A stretch of DNA of 41,370 bases. Source: an uncultured Pseudomonadales bacterium. Lineage in GTDB: Bacteria > Patescibacteriota > Microgenomatia > UBA1400 > UBA12108. The stretch is taken from NCBI GenBank assembly GCA_964610445.1, contig CAZSVV010000001.1, forward strand, positions 19,246-60,615, in the 5' to 3' direction. The position numbers were made by a program, and so were the translations under genes. The notes under the pieces are model-generated. The model saw only the letters and a program-made list of their open reading frames with translations, did not search any database and was not told the origin of the DNA. Shown in pieces: positions 4,418 through 31,004 of the stretch; positions within the stretch are counted from its first letter, which is position 1; every line of letters begins with the position of its first letter.

Positions 4418-4854
4418 AAGAGTTTCTTAGCTTTGGTAAATACTTTAAGACATCCTTTACCGCAAAAATAGTGTCGCACGCCGCCATATTCGGCAGTATG
4501 ACGCGCCTTAGTAGGAGTGAGTAGCATGTGACAAATAGGATCTACTACCTTTGGCTCCGAGTCAGTTAACGGCTCTTCATTAGCAAAGTGGTCAACAAAT
4601 AGTGAAAGGTTGAGTAGCGTGTTATCAGTCAAAGAATAGTAGAGCTCTTTGCCCAGCTTTTTGGAGTGTACTAGTTTGCTAGCCTTTAGATACATTAGGT
4701 GCTGAGATGTTGCGGCTTGGCGCATGCCAGTCATCTGCACAATCTGATTTACAGTTAGCTCATGACCATGTAGTAAGCAAATAATCTCTAATCTACTTTT
4801 ATGTCCGAGAGCTTTAAATAGTTTGGCATTCTTTATGATTTCGGTAGTATTCAT
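4414..4854 (-). CDS. ArsR/SmtB-family winged-helix regulator fused to a C-terminal YHS/TRASH metal-binding domain
   Basis: 146 aa. The N-terminus reads [16 protein letters not shown]...[30 protein letters not shown] (ArsR HTH). The C-terminus reads DPICHMLL...[17 protein letters not shown] (YHS/TRASH Cys pattern). Overlaps the copA start by 4 nt. Confidence 0.8.
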
Positions 4855-4862
4855 ACCTTAAT

Positions 4863-4884
4863 CATATTCTGTTTTTTGAATATG
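4863..4884 (-). promoter_or_regulatory. Candidate ArsR-type operator (7-bp inverted repeat CATATTC-N8-GAATATG)
   Basis: Perfect inverted repeat filling the 30-nt gap just upstream of the arsR-YHS start codon (4854). ArsR/SmtB regulators are known to bind AT-rich TATTC/GAATA-type inverted repeats. Confidence 0.35.
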
Positions 4885-5433
4885 TCAAATAGAGGGAGAT
4901 AGGGTAGCGATCAAATCGAGGTCTTTTTTGTGTTTATCAGAGAGGATACTGCCTTTTGATAGGATATCTTTTTTGTGAGCAGATTGATCTTGTACTTCTA
5001 CCACAAATCCGTAGAGACTCCCCTTTTGAGGCGATGGAAACATCGATGAATCGTTTACTACTATTTCACCGGATTTTTTGACTACAGAATGTAAATTTTT
5101 ATACGGGTCTAGCTGAGTCTGAATATAATAAAGATTAAGGACTAGATTCTTTGCATGTACATCTATGACTAGTTGAAAGTCGTTTTCCTCAATCTCTATA
5201 GTCGGTGCATCAAGGTTTTTACTAATAAAGTTACTAATCAACTTACTAGCGGATTTACGATCATTTTGACCATAAAAAACTAAATCGATATCTCCGTGAT
5301 CACGTGTGATCTTGCCAAGGAAAAAGTCTAGACCGTATCCACCATAGACAACTGTGCGCCAGCCTAGCTCACGAGCAAACACAGAAAAATCTTTGATTAA
5401 TTTTAGATCTCGGTCAGTTCTATTTGTGATCAT
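4885..5433 (-). CDS. Nucleotidyltransferase of the aminoglycoside 2''-adenylyltransferase (ANT(2'')-Ia-like) family
   Basis: VVYGGYGLDFFLGKITRDHGDIDLVFYG closely resembles the ANT(2'') motif WIGGGWAIDARLGRVTRKHDDIDLTFPG. I moved the start to the internal ATG at 5433 (MITNRTD...) because the longer ORF (to 5508) runs deep into the NUDIX gene. Confidence 0.65.
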   Translation of the reverse strand: MITNRTDRDLKLIKDFSVFARELGWRTVVYGGYGLDFFLGKITRDHGDIDLVFYGQNDRKSASKLISNFISKNLDAPTIEIEENDFQLVIDVHAKNLVLNLYYIQTQLDPYKNLHSVVKKSGEIVVNDSSMFPSPQKGSLYGFVVEVQDQSAHKKDILSKGSILSDKHKKDLDLIATLSPSI

Positions 5434-18360: not shown

Positions 18361-18364
18361 CATG

Positions 18365-18435
18365 TTGCCGAGCAGGGACTCGAACCCCAATAAGCAGCTC
18401 CAGAAACTGCTGTCCTACCATTAGACGACTCGGCA
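18365..18435 (-). tRNA. tRNA-Gln (anticodon CUG)
   Basis: Manual cloverleaf. Acceptor UGCCGAG/CUCGGCA (the U1-A72 pair is typical of bacterial tRNA-Gln). D arm GUCU-AAUGGUA-GGAC. Anticodon arm GCAGU-UUCUGGA-GCUGC. T arm with a UUCGAGU loop. Discriminator A. No encoded CCA. Confidence 0.9.
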
Positions 18436-20020: not shown

Positions 20021-20033
20021 TGTAACTAATTGA

Positions 20034-20193
20034 AAAAGCGATGAAGGGGTCCCCACCCTAGAGCTGGATACGATGAGTATCCCGTAACTGTACGAGAAAC
20101 AGTAATTAAGTGGTAAGCAAGGTGGTACCGCGAGTAACCTCGCCCTTGTTCCCGACACCAAAAAGGTGTTAGGAATAGTGGCGAGGTTTTTTG
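20034..20193 (+). promoter_or_regulatory. T-box riboswitch leader controlling proS (transcription attenuation type)
   Basis: GCGAUGA GA-motif. T-box sequence AAGGUGGUACCGCG. Antiterminator CAAGG[UGGUACC]GCGAG-UAAC-CUCGC-CCUUG (20118-20148). Competing terminator AACCUCGCC...GGCGAGGUU (20136-20188) followed by a U-run. A Pro-codon-containing hairpin loop GUCCCCA lies at 20049-20055. Confidence 0.85.
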
Positions 20194-20224
20194 TTACAAA
20201 AATTATTAATAATTGGAGATAAAT

Positions 20225-21466
20225 ATGAAGTATTCAAAACTATTTAGTAAGACACTAAAGTCAGCACCGGCTAATGCTGACACGGTCAACCATAAACTAC
20301 TAGTGCAAGCTGGTTATGTGCGTCAAGTGATGGCGGGTGTTTATACCTACACTCCCCTTGGTCTTAGAGTGTTAAACAAAATAAGCAACATTATTCGTGA
20401 AGAGATGAACGAGATAGGTGGTCAAGAAGTACTCATGCCCCTTCTACACCCTAGTTCTATCTGGAAGCAAACAGGTGGCTGGGACAAGATCGATGTGCTA
20501 TTTAAAGTAAAAAGTCGTACAGGAAAAGACTACGCGCTAGCACAAAGTAACGAAGAGACCGTCACTCCTCTAGTTAAAGAGTGGATCCACAGCGAGCGCG
20601 ATCTCCCACTAGCGGTTTATCACATTAACGCTAAGTTTCGTGATGAGCTACGCAGCAAATCCGGGATACTCCGCGGACGCGAATTCCTAATGAAAGATAT
20701 GTATAGCTGGCACAGTAATCAAGCCGACTTTGATCGCTTTTACCAAATCGTAAAAGAGGCCTACTTTAAAATCTTTGACCGACTCGGACTATCCGCCAAA
20801 GCGACAGAAGCATCAGGAGGAGCATTTACCGAAAAAGTAAGTTATGAGTTTGAGGTACTATCTGATGCAGGGGAAGCTCATATCCTCCATTGCCCTAGCT
20901 GTAACTGGTGCGTGAACTCTGATGACATTACTACTTATAAAGTGGGTGATGAATGCCATAAATGTAAGGCAGGAAAGCTAGAATCAGCAAAAGCTGCTGA
21001 GTTAGGTAATGTCTTTGATCTAGGTACCAAGTACACCAAAGCATTTGATATTAGTGTCATAAATAGTGAGGGAGAGAAGATCTATCCGATCATGGGATGC
21101 TACGGGATTGGGATCTCGCGCACGATGGGAGTAATCGTTGAGACATTTAATGACGAACGAGGGATTATATGGCCTGAAACTGTTGCACCATTTAAAGTAC
21201 ATCTCGTGTCTCTAGCTGGCAAGAGTGAAGAAGTAGCTCGGCGAGCGGATGGAGTATATGCAGAACTAACGAAATTAGGCTTTGAAGTGCTATACGACGA
21301 GCGAGAAAATGTGGGTGCAGGAGCTAAGCTAGCAGATGCCGACCTACTAGGAATACCCTACCGCGTAGTCGTATCAGAAAAATCAGGCGAGCTTGTGGAG
21401 CTGAAAAAGAGAAACGAAAAGGAAGCCAAGTTGATTAGCCTAGCTGAACTAGTTAAGTCGCTCTAA
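20225..21466 (+). CDS. proS: Prolyl-tRNA synthetase, bacterial-type core lacking the INS editing domain
   Basis: N-terminus KYSKLFSKTLKSAPANADTVNHKLLVQAGYVRQVMAGVYTYTPLGLRVL. Motif 2 FRDELRSKSGILRGREFLMKDMYSWH. Motif 3 GCYGIGISR. C-terminal anticodon-binding domain present. Start set at ATG 20225 (GGAG 6 nt upstream); the track start at 20213 is TTG. Confidence 0.95.
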   Translation: MKYSKLFSKTLKSAPANADTVNHKLLVQAGYVRQVMAGVYTYTPLGLRVLNKISNIIREEMNEIGGQEVLMPLLHPSSIWKQTGGWDKIDVLFKVKSRTGKDYALAQSNEETVTPLVKEWIHSERDLPLAVYHINAKFRDELRSKSGILRGREFLMKDMYSWHSNQADFDRFYQIVKEAYFKIFDRLGLSAKATEASGGAFTEKVSYEFEVLSDAGEAHILHCPSCNWCVNSDDITTYKVGDECHKCKAGKLESAKAAELGNVFDLGTKYTKAFDISVINSEGEKIYPIMGCYGIGISRTMGVIVETFNDERGIIWPETVAPFKVHLVSLAGKSEEVARRADGVYAELTKLGFEVLYDERENVGAGAKLADADLLGIPYRVVVSEKSGELVELKKRNEKEAKLISLAELVKSL

Positions 21467-23849: not shown

Positions 23850-24347
23850 TTAAGTTAGATTAGTTACCACAGGGTGCACTATCTTAATGTAATCGCGTGA
23901 ATACATTCCAATAGAGTAAGATCTATCTCCTGCGTTGAATACAATTTTTTCGTTAGCTAGTAGCTCAGAATCAGCGATAACTTCGAGATTAAAGAGGTTG
24001 CCAAATGGAGGCACACCTCCGGGTAATATCCCCCCAGTAATTTCTGATACTTCTTCGACTGTTGCGAAACGAATATCCTTGGCACTATAGATACTCTTAA
24101 CTTTGGCAGTATCAAAGCGACGATCACCAGGTATCACAATCATTACAAACTTTTTGTTCTGACTACTGATTTTGACACGAGCGATGATTGCTTTTGCACC
24201 TTGATGCAGAGTGTAGCCTGTCCGAACTTTTGCGGCCTCCTCACTTGTTTTGACAGGCTCGTGTTCAAAAGTCTCGAACCAACAATCATGCTCGCCTAAT
24301 AGTTCGCGGATCTCCTGGGTCGTAGGATGATATATTTTGTTAGACAT
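23850..24347 (-). CDS. YbaK/ProX/EbsC-family aminoacyl-tRNA trans-editing deacylase
   Basis: 165 aa. HQGAKAIIARV...FVMIVIPGDRRFD..KV...GGILPGGVPPFG matches the YbaK/ProRS-associated domain pattern (the conserved Lys region and the GxxPxG loop). Confidence 0.8.
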   Translation of the reverse strand: MSNKIYHPTTQEIRELLGEHDCWFETFEHEPVKTSEEAAKVRTGYTLHQGAKAIIARVKISSQNKKFVMIVIPGDRRFDTAKVKSIYSAKDIRFATVEEVSEITGGILPGGVPPFGNLFNLEVIADSELLANEKIVFNAGDRSYSIGMYSRDYIKIVHPVVTNLT

Positions 24348-24349
24348 AG

Positions 24350-25630
24350 TCAGGGCCTGAGTCTTTTGACGTCACGAGGGAGGAAAGTTGCCTCTTTGAC
24401 ACTAGGCAATCCTAGGATCTGGGCGATAATGCGCCCTGGGCCGATGCCAACTCCACCATGTGGTGGGACACCATACCTAAAGAAGCTAAGATAATCGGAG
24501 AGTCCTTCTTCGGTCAGACCTTTCTCGGCAGCTTGCGCCACTAGTTTGTCGATCCTGTGCTCACGCTGAGCGCCAGTTGTGATCTCGACTCCTTTGTAGA
24601 GTAAATCAAACCCTTTGGTTAAGCCAGTCTCCTCATCTCGCATGTGATAAAACGCACGGTGTGCTTTGGGGTAGTCGGTAATAAAGACAAACTCGCTCCC
24701 TGTCTCGTCTTTGACGATTTTGCATATTCCACGCTCTTCGTCGGGAGAGAGATCACCTTCTTTGTCACTAGTTATCCCAGCAGCTTTTAATTTATCTTTT
24801 GTCTCAGCTAGCGTGAGACGAGCAAATGGTACTTTGATTTCTTCTTCGATTAAGCCGGCTGACTTTAGCTTGGCAAAGCCTGATTTCAGCATAGCCTCCT
24901 CAGTATCCATGACATCATGATGACTCGTGATGTGTGCAATTTCAAAGTCCCAACCAGTAAACTCCGTCATGTGGCGGGTAGTAAAGCTAAGCTCCGCACG
25001 AAAGACCGGGCCGACCATGAAGACTTTTTCAAATCCGCTAGCTATCGCCATTTGTTTGTAGAACTGTGGTGATTGAGCAAGATATGCCTTGCCTTCAAAA
25101 TATTTGACCTCAAAGACCTCGGCACCACTCTCACTTGGTGCACTCATTAGTGCTGGTGAGTAGAGCTGAGTAAAGCCATTAGCACTAAAGTATTCTCTAA
25201 TCCCCTGTTCGAGCACTGTCCATACCTGAAAGATTTTTTGAGAATCAGGCTTACGCAAATCTAGCCAGCGATAGTCAAAGCGCTTGGTTACATCTACCTC
25301 TTCGGCACCTTTTTCGGCAACTACTGGGATCGGGAGTGGGAGCGATAAAACCTCTATCTTAATACTGCTTGCATCAATCTCGACACCTTCGGGGACCTGT
25401 TTACTCTCTTTGAGCAATCCCTCAACGCGAATCACTGACTCGACTGAGAGCTCTTTGATTGATTCAAAGACTTCTTTGTTCCAAGCTCCTGTTACTACCT
25501 GGATACTGCCACTAATATCTCGCACTCTCAAAAATGCGATCTTACCTTGGTTACGGATCGAGTGGACAAACCCTGCGATCGTGACAGTCTCACCTACTAA
25601 TTTAGTAACTTCACTAATGCTTTTGCGCAT
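24350..25630 (-). CDS. aspS: Aspartyl-tRNA synthetase, short archaeal/type-2 form (possibly non-discriminating)
   Basis: 426 aa. N-terminal OB fold. QSPQFYKQ, motif 2 FRAELSFTTRHMTEFTGWDFE, motif 3 GVPPHGGVGIGPGR, and the LPRDVKRLRP C-terminus. GAGGAG Shine-Dalgarno upstream. Confidence 0.9.
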   Translation of the reverse strand: MRKSISEVTKLVGETVTIAGFVHSIRNQGKIAFLRVRDISGSIQVVTGAWNKEVFESIKELSVESVIRVEGLLKESKQVPEGVEIDASSIKIEVLSLPLPIPVVAEKGAEEVDVTKRFDYRWLDLRKPDSQKIFQVWTVLEQGIREYFSANGFTQLYSPALMSAPSESGAEVFEVKYFEGKAYLAQSPQFYKQMAIASGFEKVFMVGPVFRAELSFTTRHMTEFTGWDFEIAHITSHHDVMDTEEAMLKSGFAKLKSAGLIEEEIKVPFARLTLAETKDKLKAAGITSDKEGDLSPDEERGICKIVKDETGSEFVFITDYPKAHRAFYHMRDEETGLTKGFDLLYKGVEITTGAQREHRIDKLVAQAAEKGLTEEGLSDYLSFFRYGVPPHGGVGIGPGRIIAQILGLPSVKEATFLPRDVKRLRP

Positions 25631-25662: not shown

Positions 25663-25815
25663 AAAAAAACCGCCCCAAAACCCTATTTTTGAAAGGGTCC
25701 TGTCGGACGGTGCCACCTTATCTAAACTTATTACAGCTATAACGGGCTTAACCGGTTCCAGCCTGCCTGCCGGCAGGCAGGCTCGTCTTTTGTCAGAAGA
25801 CAGCTGTTATGTATT
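25663..25815 (-). promoter_or_regulatory. T-box riboswitch leader controlling aspS (transcription attenuation type)
   Basis: Read on the minus strand. Antiterminator AAGG[UGGCACC]GUCC-GACA-GGAC-CCUU (25693-25719). Competing terminator ACCGUCC...ACCCU-loop-AGGGU...GGGCGGU plus U7 (25663-25711). Hairpin GUCUU-CUGACAA-AAGAC (25785-25801) presents GAC. A 24-nt perfect palindrome helix lies at 25760-25783. Confidence 0.8.
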
Positions 25816-25836: not shown

Positions 25837-26799
25837 TTATCTTGGAGAGTCAACCTTTACCCAATTATGGTGTGCGTATACCCATTCGACGAGTCGTGTC
25901 GTGTCTGCAAAACGATCTACACTACCGAGTACTACTGTAATGATGCCGCGACCATCGCGCTCGACATAACTAACAAAACACTCGCCAGCTCCTGTGGTCC
26001 AGCCAGTTTTGCCACCGACTAATCCTCGGAGGACGGATAGCAGCTCGTCTGTTGACTCTAGTTCGTAAATCTTAGTGCCAGTTATGTCGGTAATTGTTGC
26101 GACTTCTTTTGAAACAACTTCCTGGATGTAGTGATCGGATAGGGCGACGGAAGCGAGTGTTGAGATATCGCGAGCGGATGTAACATGACCATACTGATCG
26201 ATGCCACTAGGGTTTTTGTACGTAGTCCGTTTGAGATTTAGCTCCTGCGCCTTCTGGTTCATAGCCGCCACAAAAGCAGAGTATCCACCAGGATAGTTAT
26301 CGGCGAGCGTGAGTGCGGCGTCGTTGCCCGAGTGGATTAGGAGACCGTGGAGGAGCGAGTCTACTCTTAATTGATCACCTTCGCTTAGTTCGATGGTCTG
26401 CCCTATCGCACGATCTTCGTTTTGAACGGTTAGTATAGTGTTTTTGTCCGGCCAAGCATCTAGTGCAACGAGCGCTGTCATCAGCTTGGTAATAGAAGCG
26501 GGAGGCAAAACTACATCCGGACGCCTCTCAGCGATCACTGTTTTGCTACTTATATCCTGGACAATATATGAGGTCGAGGCAACACCGGGTGGTTTTGCCC
26601 CATCTGATAATGGATAATCGGCGAGAGCAATCTCGATTTTTTGTGGGCTAAAAACAGGACCTGGTTTTAGGACTATTGACTGCAGCTGGTTGTGACCAGG
26701 GTAAGTTAAAGTCAGAAGTAAGAAACATGAAATCAGAAACAAGGATTGTTTGGGGCGATTTTGTATAAAGGCTGCAAACTGTGATTTAGACTTCGACAT
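25837..26799 (-). CDS. D-alanyl-D-alanine carboxypeptidase (peptidase S11, low-molecular-weight PBP)
   Basis: SxxK (SITK), SGN (HSGND) and KTG (GKTGWT) motifs. N-terminal signal/anchor. Confidence 0.9.
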   Translation of the reverse strand: MSKSKSQFAAFIQNRPKQSLFLISCFLLLTLTYPGHNQLQSIVLKPGPVFSPQKIEIALADYPLSDGAKPPGVASTSYIVQDISSKTVIAERRPDVVLPPASITKLMTALVALDAWPDKNTILTVQNEDRAIGQTIELSEGDQLRVDSLLHGLLIHSGNDAALTLADNYPGGYSAFVAAMNQKAQELNLKRTTYKNPSGIDQYGHVTSARDISTLASVALSDHYIQEVVSKEVATITDITGTKIYELESTDELLSVLRGLVGGKTGWTTGAGECFVSYVERDGRGIITVVLGSVDRFADTTRLVEWVYAHHNWVKVDSPR

Positions 26800-30724: not shown

Positions 30725-31004
30725 GCCGAATGTGGTTGGTGGGTGATCGGGCGAGTCGCAAGACGAGTCAGGAAAGTCCAGACAGCAGAGTGCAGGGTGG
30801 GTAGCGTAAGCTATCACGGGTAACCGCTAGTTTAGAGCAACAGTGACGAACCGATTTAGTTCGGGTGAAACGGGCAATCCTCCCCGCTGCAACCGACGAC
30901 TGGGACGACTAAGACAGTAGCACTCCTGAGTCCCGAAGATTGCGGGCATTAGAGAAATGATCGCACTAAAAACAGAATCTGGCTTATGCCAACCACAGCT
31001 CGGC
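30725..31004 (+). ncRNA. rnpB: RNase P RNA (bacterial), unusually short (~280 nt)
   Basis: Universally conserved P4 strands GGAAAGUCC (30770s) and ACAGAAUCUGGCUUA (30971-30985). P1 pairing GCCGA-A-UGUGGUUGG / CCAACCACA-GC-UCGGC closes the molecule. Confidence 0.85.

Follow-up and report, generated by a model that had tools for sequence, protein, structure and literature searches.

The stretch of DNA analysed here (41,370 nucleotides, called the window throughout) carries a short leader upstream of aspS, and this leader raises the question of whether a T-box can work without the domains that are thought to hold its tRNA in place. T-boxes are a model system for RNA-RNA recognition of tRNA. Four classes have been defined: Class I has a long Stem I with an elbow platform together with an S-turn Stem II, Class II (glyQS) a long Stem I and no Stem II, Class III (actinobacterial ileS) a short Stem I with the Specifier in a 5-6 nt apical loop, a required Stem II and a mostly translational output, and Class IV an intermediate Stem I (PMC10482949). 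The elbow platform, the S-turn or the two together augment tRNA binding (PMC10482949), and T-boxes are said not to manage without at least one of elbow platform and Stem II S-turn (PMC10482949, PMC7583486). Transcriptional T-boxes are further reported to require a long Stem I in general, and a review has raised the question of whether there are T-boxes that can do without a K-turn (PMC7583486). An earlier note on this DNA read the leader as a T-box attenuator. That reading holds against some 30 related leaders, with covariation in both the hairpin and the antiterminator, and we consider it very likely that the leader is a T-box riboswitch that acts by transcription attenuation on aspS and probably also on the ybaK-like gene overlapping it.

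The aspS leader and its surroundings

The features of the leader are collected in Table 1, and all of those that the earlier note had picked out on the minus strand are present where it had placed them. The regulated gene encodes a non-discriminating (archaeal/ND-type) aspartyl-tRNA synthetase (AspRS; NF003483, 449 bits), which also matches aspartate--tRNA(Asn) ligase models, and the nearest genomes to the window are Candidatus Woesebacteria MAGs at 99% and 96% amino-acid identity. The leader has a promoter in which TTGAC and TGTTATCCTC are invariant among relatives. From the position of this promoter we infer a transcription start at about 25818, and because the promoter is conserved and the leader's own, the leader should be about 190 nt long. 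The distance from Stem I to the U run is 140 nt in the window and about 120 nt in the relative L002 (L numbers denote the loci compared).

A YbaK/EbsC-like tRNA_edit gene (23850-24347, minus strand) overlaps aspS at its end, and the two are probably co-transcribed under T-box control; the YbaK/EbsC-like gene is missing from that position in L161-L165. Elsewhere, tRNA-Gln(CUG) at 18364-18435 on the minus strand is the sole tRNA gene in the window and is kept beside the proS region in L082 and L161. There is also a bacterial RNase P RNA, reduced to 271 nt, at 30731-31001 on the plus strand (RF00010, 83.6 bits, E 6.6e-26), which the standard scan missed because its score lies under the 100-bit gathering score; its counterpart in L161, at 4616-4897, scores 87.2 bits.

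Table 1. Coordinates of the aspS leader and the genes on either side of it, in window positions
Feature	Position	Strand	Description
Upstream gene, D-Ala-D-Ala carboxypeptidase	25837-26799		stop codon overlapped by the leader promoter
Promoter	25853-25825	-	-35 TTGACT 25853-25848; spacer 17 nt; TG-extended -10 TATCCT 25830-25825; from a consensus scan
Basal helix	25806-25802 (5' strand), 25763-25759 (3' strand)	-	CAGCU/GGCUG
Specifier hairpin (Stem I)	25801-25785	-	GUCUU-CUGACAA-AAGAC; 5 bp, 7-nt apical loop; 17 nt in total
Specifier	25794-25792	-	GAC; purine A25791 next
Branch hairpin, perfect palindrome	25783-25760	-	24 nt; -20 kcal/mol
Stem IIA-like hairpin	25757-25733	-	CGG 25754-25752 / CCG 25745-25743; trailing AGCUGU
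F-box-like segment	25746-25740	-	CCCGUUA; fits Rfam consensus CGG...CCGUUA
Antiterminator	25719-25693	-	A1 AAGG/CCUU; T-box bulge; A2 GUCC-GACA-GGAC
T-box bulge	25715-25709	-	UGGCACC, 7 nt; UGGC at 25715-25712
Intrinsic terminator	25711-25669	-	16-bp interrupted stem; outer ACCGUCC/GGGCGGU, inner contains ACCCU/AGGGU; U7 at 25669-25663
aspS	24350-25630	-	ATG at 25630; SD GAGGAG 25640-25635

Specifier hairpin and discriminator switch

Stem I presents GAC, a codon for the amino acid of AspRS, in its apical loop with the purine A next to it, and we assessed this Specifier by positional homology and by arm-swapping. All the leaders have a hairpin of 4-7 bp at the corresponding place, immediately 5' of a conserved GAGC. 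There are 17 distinct 5' arms, and these form a mean of 4.8 consecutive base pairs with their own partner versus 1.65 with the partners of other sequences. Compensatory versions include GUCUU/AAGAC in the window, GUUUG/CAAAC in L002 and GUUGG/CCAGC in L168, and the basal helix likewise varies from CAGCU/GGCUG in the window to GAUCU/AGAUC in L168 and CAAC/GUUG in L006. Pairing in Stem I and the basal helix is complete (100%) across the five window-type leaders, and six pairs are changed on both sides, all of them from L168. A basal helix closes the domain in all of these relatives, with or without a branch hairpin, and since in the window-type leaders this domain holds both Stem I and the branch hairpin, they form a three-way junction. 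The minimum free energy fold had instead paired the 5' ACAGCU with the AGCUGU downstream of the F-box, and this long-range helix is apparently compensated between the window and L002 but broken in L161 and L167, so the local basal helix was adopted in its place. A generic search for any upstream hairpin whose loop contains a cognate codon towards its 3' end told us nothing, since 80% of shuffled sequences pass it too.

The loop triplet goes with the downstream gene. Leaders of ND-aspS genes carry the loop (C/U)UGACA(A/C) or variants of it, with GAC or AAC in the 17 tabulated CPR (Candidate Phyla Radiation) leaders and in five further relatives, and a purine follows the triplet in all of them except L065. 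AAC stands in place of GAC in L009, L015, L036 and L065, about 90-130 nt upstream of the T-box bulge, and GAC is found throughout the window leader and its nine closest relatives. In the leaders of proS, tRNA_bind+proS operons and a proC-like gene, the loop has CCC followed by A or G. Comparison of orthologous leaders, which the earlier note had named as a check, bears out its reading of the loop, with GAC/AAC retained ahead of aspS and CCC ahead of proline genes. Only one other triplet, ACA, is common in aspS loops, and L012 and L065 rule it out as the Specifier. As an observation on the ND AspRS genes as a group, the division into AAC and GAC leaders suggests that different lineages track different substrates of one enzyme. 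The likeness in size to an anticodon loop that the earlier note had drawn does not extend to the relatives, whose loops range from 6 to 11 nt. Its description of an atypical short specifier hairpin stands as far as the hairpin is concerned, which is real and shows compensatory changes, but Class III T-boxes are already defined by an apical-loop Specifier (PMC10482949), so the hairpin alone is not new.

Downstream of the Specifier domain, a 7-nt bulge lies between helices A1 and A2, and AAGGUGGCACCGUC fits 10 of the 13 specified positions of the T-box consensus AGGGUGGNACCGCG. When 17 discriminator domains were aligned, 90% of the cells were paired and covariation was 0.59 versus 0.24 for shuffles (0/500 reach 0.59), with about 0.1 in a slid-partner control. 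The window contains GGTGGNACCR three times versus 0.22 expected, and two of the three copies are just upstream of the aminoacyl-tRNA synthetase genes aspS and proS; about 20 other Patescibacteria, and Streptomyces, also have this motif ahead of their aspS orthologues. Folding gives the terminator about -22 kcal/mol (-22.4) versus -6.3 kcal/mol for the antiterminator. The earlier note had described the two as competing, and they do have 18 nt in common (25711-25694); since both use these nucleotides they cannot coexist. An equivalent overlapping terminator is present in 20 of 24 related short-Stem-I leaders. The Shine-Dalgarno sequence is unsequestered and lies 22 nt downstream of the U run, which argues that the output of the aspS leader is transcription termination.

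The last base of the UGGN bulge follows the cognate amino acid, as the earlier note had noticed from the aspS and proS leaders: it is C in 20 and U in two of 22 Asp/Asn leaders, and U in 9/9 Pro leaders (Fisher p=2.7e-6, uncorrected for relatedness). This distribution is the pattern that would be expected for G73 versus A73. In general tRNA-Asp has G73 as its discriminator and a GUC anticodon, and the tRNA-Asp of this lineage would presumably have them too. An ARAGORN search of the window and 169 loci found no tRNA-Asp gene from the window's lineage, the only one recovered being in an archaeon, and one CPR tRNA-Asn (L132) has G73, which is compatible with UGGC.

How visible the leader is to covariance models depends on the model. 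One model (R1) scores 37.2 bits on the window antiterminator. Another (R2) was made from other organisms' leaders only, with window and Woesebacteria sequences excluded, and finds exactly two matches in the 41-kb window, the proS leader at 34.7 bits and the aspS leader at 24.3 bits (E 1.2e-5). The search with RF00230 that the earlier note had proposed leaves the aspS leader unmatched at the gathering threshold and at E≤10, and RF00230 does not match the branchless relative L002. The curated threshold of this model is 93 bits, and related leaders score 40-73 bits, all under it. The alignment of the L019 aspS leader (58.4 bits) covers its S-turn in Stem II, IIA/F-box, Stem III and discriminator, with 4 nt in place of 74 distal Stem I positions, and that of the window proS leader (49.1 bits) has 6 nt in place of 76 such positions; these leaders connect the aspS leader step by step to canonical T-boxes.

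The proS leader is itself a second short-Stem-I T-box (20032-20200, plus strand), ahead of a proS gene (20213-21466) that encodes a short-form ProRS of 417 aa, and it has a K-turn-like GAUGA...AGAGC base, an apical loop GUCCCCA containing CCC, a UGGU bulge and a strong terminator. The relatives' proline T-box precedes a gene for a 111-122 aa tRNA_bind protein (PF01588), itself ahead of proS (L082/L083/L086 2550-2584, L087 388-423, L088 1984-2020, L089 2552-2586, L161 15383-15600 on the minus strand). The window is without this small gene and its T-box stands directly ahead of proS, an arrangement found in 1 of 80 metagenomic homologues (L091); the usable Pro leaders are those upstream of the neighbouring tRNA_bind gene. 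Three other T-boxes in candidate-phyla contigs are one ahead of a P5C-reductase-like gene with a short Stem I and the loop UUUCCCG, one ahead of an aromatic amino acid hydroxylase gene with a long canonical Stem I (69.7 bits), and one of the proline type with an intermediate Stem I (71.1 bits). These three (L094 1647-1849; L113 1395-1615, minus strand; L101 576-769) all fall under the Rfam gathering score. In Streptomyces (L075-L079, about 2714-2951), a homologue of aspS of the archaeal/ND type, 48% identical, has a T-box ahead of it; Stem I in this leader is long, GAAGACC contains GAC, no U-run terminator is obvious, and the RF00230 score of 73.5 bits is also below threshold.

Missing domains and the nearest T-box classes

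Of the elements that normally separate Stem I from the discriminator, the window leader keeps the Stem IIA/F-box. This segment is nearly invariant among relatives, and in L019 its homologue falls on the Stem IIA/F-box positions when aligned to RF00230. A IIB pairing AGC:GCU is plausible in the window; the corresponding pairing of loop AAG/AGC with downstream CUU/GCU covaries in some CPR leaders and fails in L006, L010, L012 and L168. A distal Stem I elbow platform was seen neither on inspection of the window leader nor in the RF00230 alignments of its relatives, Stem I being the 17-nt hairpin and nothing more. By inspection, the base of Stem I (CAGC-U-GUCUU) has no K-turn (GA motif), lacking the 3-nt bulge and GA, and the three-way junction stands where the K-turn would be; a K-turn-like GAUGA...GA is retained in the window proS leader and in other CPR aspS leaders. 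Inspection likewise found no AGUA/GAA motif of an S-turn Stem II. The sole helix at that place is a fully paired, variable hairpin, and in branchless relatives only about 10 nt lie between Stem I and IIA. Nor was a Stem III found on inspection, with about 14 nt from the F-box region to helix A1.

The window leader is closest to Class III T-boxes, minus their required Stem II. Like the ileS leaders of Nocardia farcinica and Mycobacterium tuberculosis, it has a short Stem I without the double T-loop platform for elbow docking, a Specifier in a small apical loop with a purine next, a Stem IIA/F-box (CCCGUUA in the window, CCGUCA in N. farcinica; PMC7583486) and the same discriminator core with a UGGN bulge. 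Unlike them, it specifies Asp and not Ile, has a loop of 7 nt and not 5-6 nt, ends in an intrinsic terminator where Class III sequesters the Shine-Dalgarno sequence, and has neither a Stem III, nor the S-turn Stem II that is reported to be required in Class III, nor the K-turn that is reported to be essential for short Stem I-Stem II constructs. The TBDB model for translational T-boxes, which that database calls Class II, was searched only in Actinobacteria (PMC7778990). A precedent for dispensing with the S-turn is the glyQS leader of Bacillus subtilis (Class II), which is also transcriptional and works without a Stem II domain. Unlike the window leader, however, glyQS keeps a long Stem I with an elbow platform, a K-turn and an internal-loop Specifier, and its lack of Stem II has been explained by strong GGC:GCC pairing, whereas the GAC:GUC pairing of the window has one A-U pair.

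Nearer in position are the CPR aspS leaders that do have a Stem II (L019, L015, L036, L045 and L065, from Saccharibacteria, WWE3 and Parcubacteria MAGs). Leaders of the L019 type share with the window the orthologous position, the apical loop (C/U)UGACA or its AAC variant, the IIA/F-box, the T-box bulge and the terminator, but unlike the window leader they have a base with the GA motif (GAUCC...GGGGAGC), a Stem II resembling the S-turn type (GAAGAAA...AGUAGAA) and, in most cases, a Stem III, and they score 58 bits on RF00230 where the window aspS leader is unmatched. Many CPR aspS leaders (L019 and others) are Class III-like, yet carry terminators. With the Class I model RF00230 itself the window leader shares the T-box sequence, the antiterminator/terminator switch and the IIA/F-box consensus, and it differs in having neither Stem II nor Stem III and in lacking about 75 positions of the distal Stem I. 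What is new here is the combination of an apical-loop Specifier and an intrinsic terminator with the loss of every known accessory tRNA-holding domain. A literature search on T-boxes with Candidate Phyla Radiation, Patescibacteria or Saccharibacteria found no paper linking them, and T-boxes in this lineage appear not to have been described before.

What the leader may sense and what this would mean

The one helix that fills the place of Stem II calls for comment, because the earlier note had given weight to it as a perfect palindrome. Such a 24-nt palindrome occurs once in the window (chance expectation about 0.0025) and is exactly as described, but as a conserved helix it does not survive comparison: it is carried only by the window and the 99%-identical L001, and relatives have an unrelated hairpin there or none. 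At the same site L161 has CCCAC-AAUC-GUGGG, L165 UCCCGC-AAUA-GUGGGA, L167 UCCC...GGGA and L168 GUCUACC-AAAAUA-GGUAGAC, while L002, L003, L006 and L166 have a 7-nt internal loop on the 5' strand instead of a branch hairpin. The outer 4 bp of the palindrome also compete with the 3' strand of the basal helix (25763-25759). A perfect, GC-rich element that is restricted to two strains, looks terminator-like in a plus-strand scan and has no counterpart at all in four relatives might be an unrelated insertion that merely sits within the leader, for instance a site for protein binding, a scar left by a mobile element or a plus-strand terminator. We regard this as unlikely, given that four other relatives place different hairpins at exactly the same site within the same basal helix, so that what recurs is the hairpin and not its sequence; moreover, no convergent plus-strand gene ends there and the window has no second copy. 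By this comparison the palindrome is a strain-specific, extended form of a variable branch hairpin and not a conserved sequence element.

The leader as a whole could also be a decaying relic, descended from a T-box but no longer binding tRNA, whose one remaining role would be that of a constitutive partial terminator. Decay would fit with the lack, by inspection, of most accessory domains, with the failure of RF00230 to detect the leader and with its complete loss from some close relatives. In L163, L164, L169, L004, L005 and L007 the leader is absent, with aspS starting 8-27 nt past the upstream carboxypeptidase gene (L163 1992-2001, L164 1992-2001, L169 973-1001), and these leaderless close relatives have 81-89% AspRS identity. 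The absence of the whole leader from several close relatives means that it is dispensable, and its distribution indicates that the T-box has repeatedly been lost, or gained, within this clade. Where the leader is present, however, its 3' 100 columns, from IIA to the terminator, are 74-97% identical in eight relatives, versus 32-64% for four-fold sites of aspS. Leader identity so far above that of four-fold sites means that, by this measure, the aspS leader is under strong purifying selection, and it argues against a relic. The Specifier loop, IIA/F-box and T-box bulge are invariant or nearly so although the relatives' synonymous sites are near saturation, the stems are kept by compensatory changes, and a pure terminator has no need of GAC, UGGC or antiterminator helices; we therefore think decay very improbable. 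We give even less credence to the idea that the leader senses tRNA-Asn besides, or instead of, tRNA-Asp, with GAC reading the GUU anticodon through a G-U pair. One might expect some such flexibility from a non-discriminating enzyme that also charges tRNA-Asn and matches the ligase model for it, from the AAC found in the same loop of four orthologous leaders, and from the UGGC-compatible G73 of the CPR tRNA-Asn, but the window and its nine closest leaders have GAC throughout, and T-boxes show a strict preference for Watson-Crick pairing between Specifier and anticodon (PMC7778990).

Regulation of aspS by a T-box that responds to tRNA-Asp thus remains the reading we favour, and the binding of tRNA, the sensing of its charge and antitermination are what we infer from the structures above. 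RNA polymerase would start from the leader's own promoter, and the nascent RNA would fold into a small three-way junction made of the basal helix, the 5-bp hairpin with GAC in its apical loop and the branch hairpin, followed by the IIA/F-box. The GUC anticodon of tRNA-Asp would pair with GAC. If the tRNA is uncharged, its 3' NCCA end could pair with UGGC in the 7-nt bulge and stabilise the weak antiterminator (about -6 kcal/mol), which would block the much stronger terminator (about -22 kcal/mol) and allow aspS to be transcribed; a charged tRNA would not make the NCCA-UGGC contact, and transcription would stop at the U7 run. With the elbow platform, K-turn, S-turn Stem II and Stem III all missing, recognition would have to rest mainly on the two base-paired contacts, perhaps aided by the branch hairpin or the IIA/F-box element. 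On sequence evidence, then, this reduced T-box seems to sense uncharged tRNA-Asp without the tRNA-gripping parts of textbook T-boxes.

We speculate, tentatively and with rather more doubt than conviction, that Woesebacteria and their relatives have a fifth architectural type of T-box, in which a specifier hairpin resembling an anticodon arm (5-bp stem, loop C-U-GAC-A-A) kisses the anticodon loop of the tRNA and the branch hairpin or the IIA/F-box adds the remaining geometry. If true, this would contradict the view that at least one anchor, elbow platform or S-turn, is needed, as well as the view that transcriptional T-boxes need a long Stem I for fast tRNA capture. The window leader is also a candidate for the K-turn-free T-box whose existence was put as a question in the review (PMC7583486). 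Since the CPR leaders do not reach the curated Rfam threshold, candidate-phyla bacteria probably have more T-box regulation than is annotated. The GAC/AAC specifier switch ahead of a non-discriminating AspRS suggests that regulation tracks the dual tRNA use of the enzyme, and a conserved, selected, terminator-type T-box with neither anchor would offer a natural minimal construct for the essential contacts.
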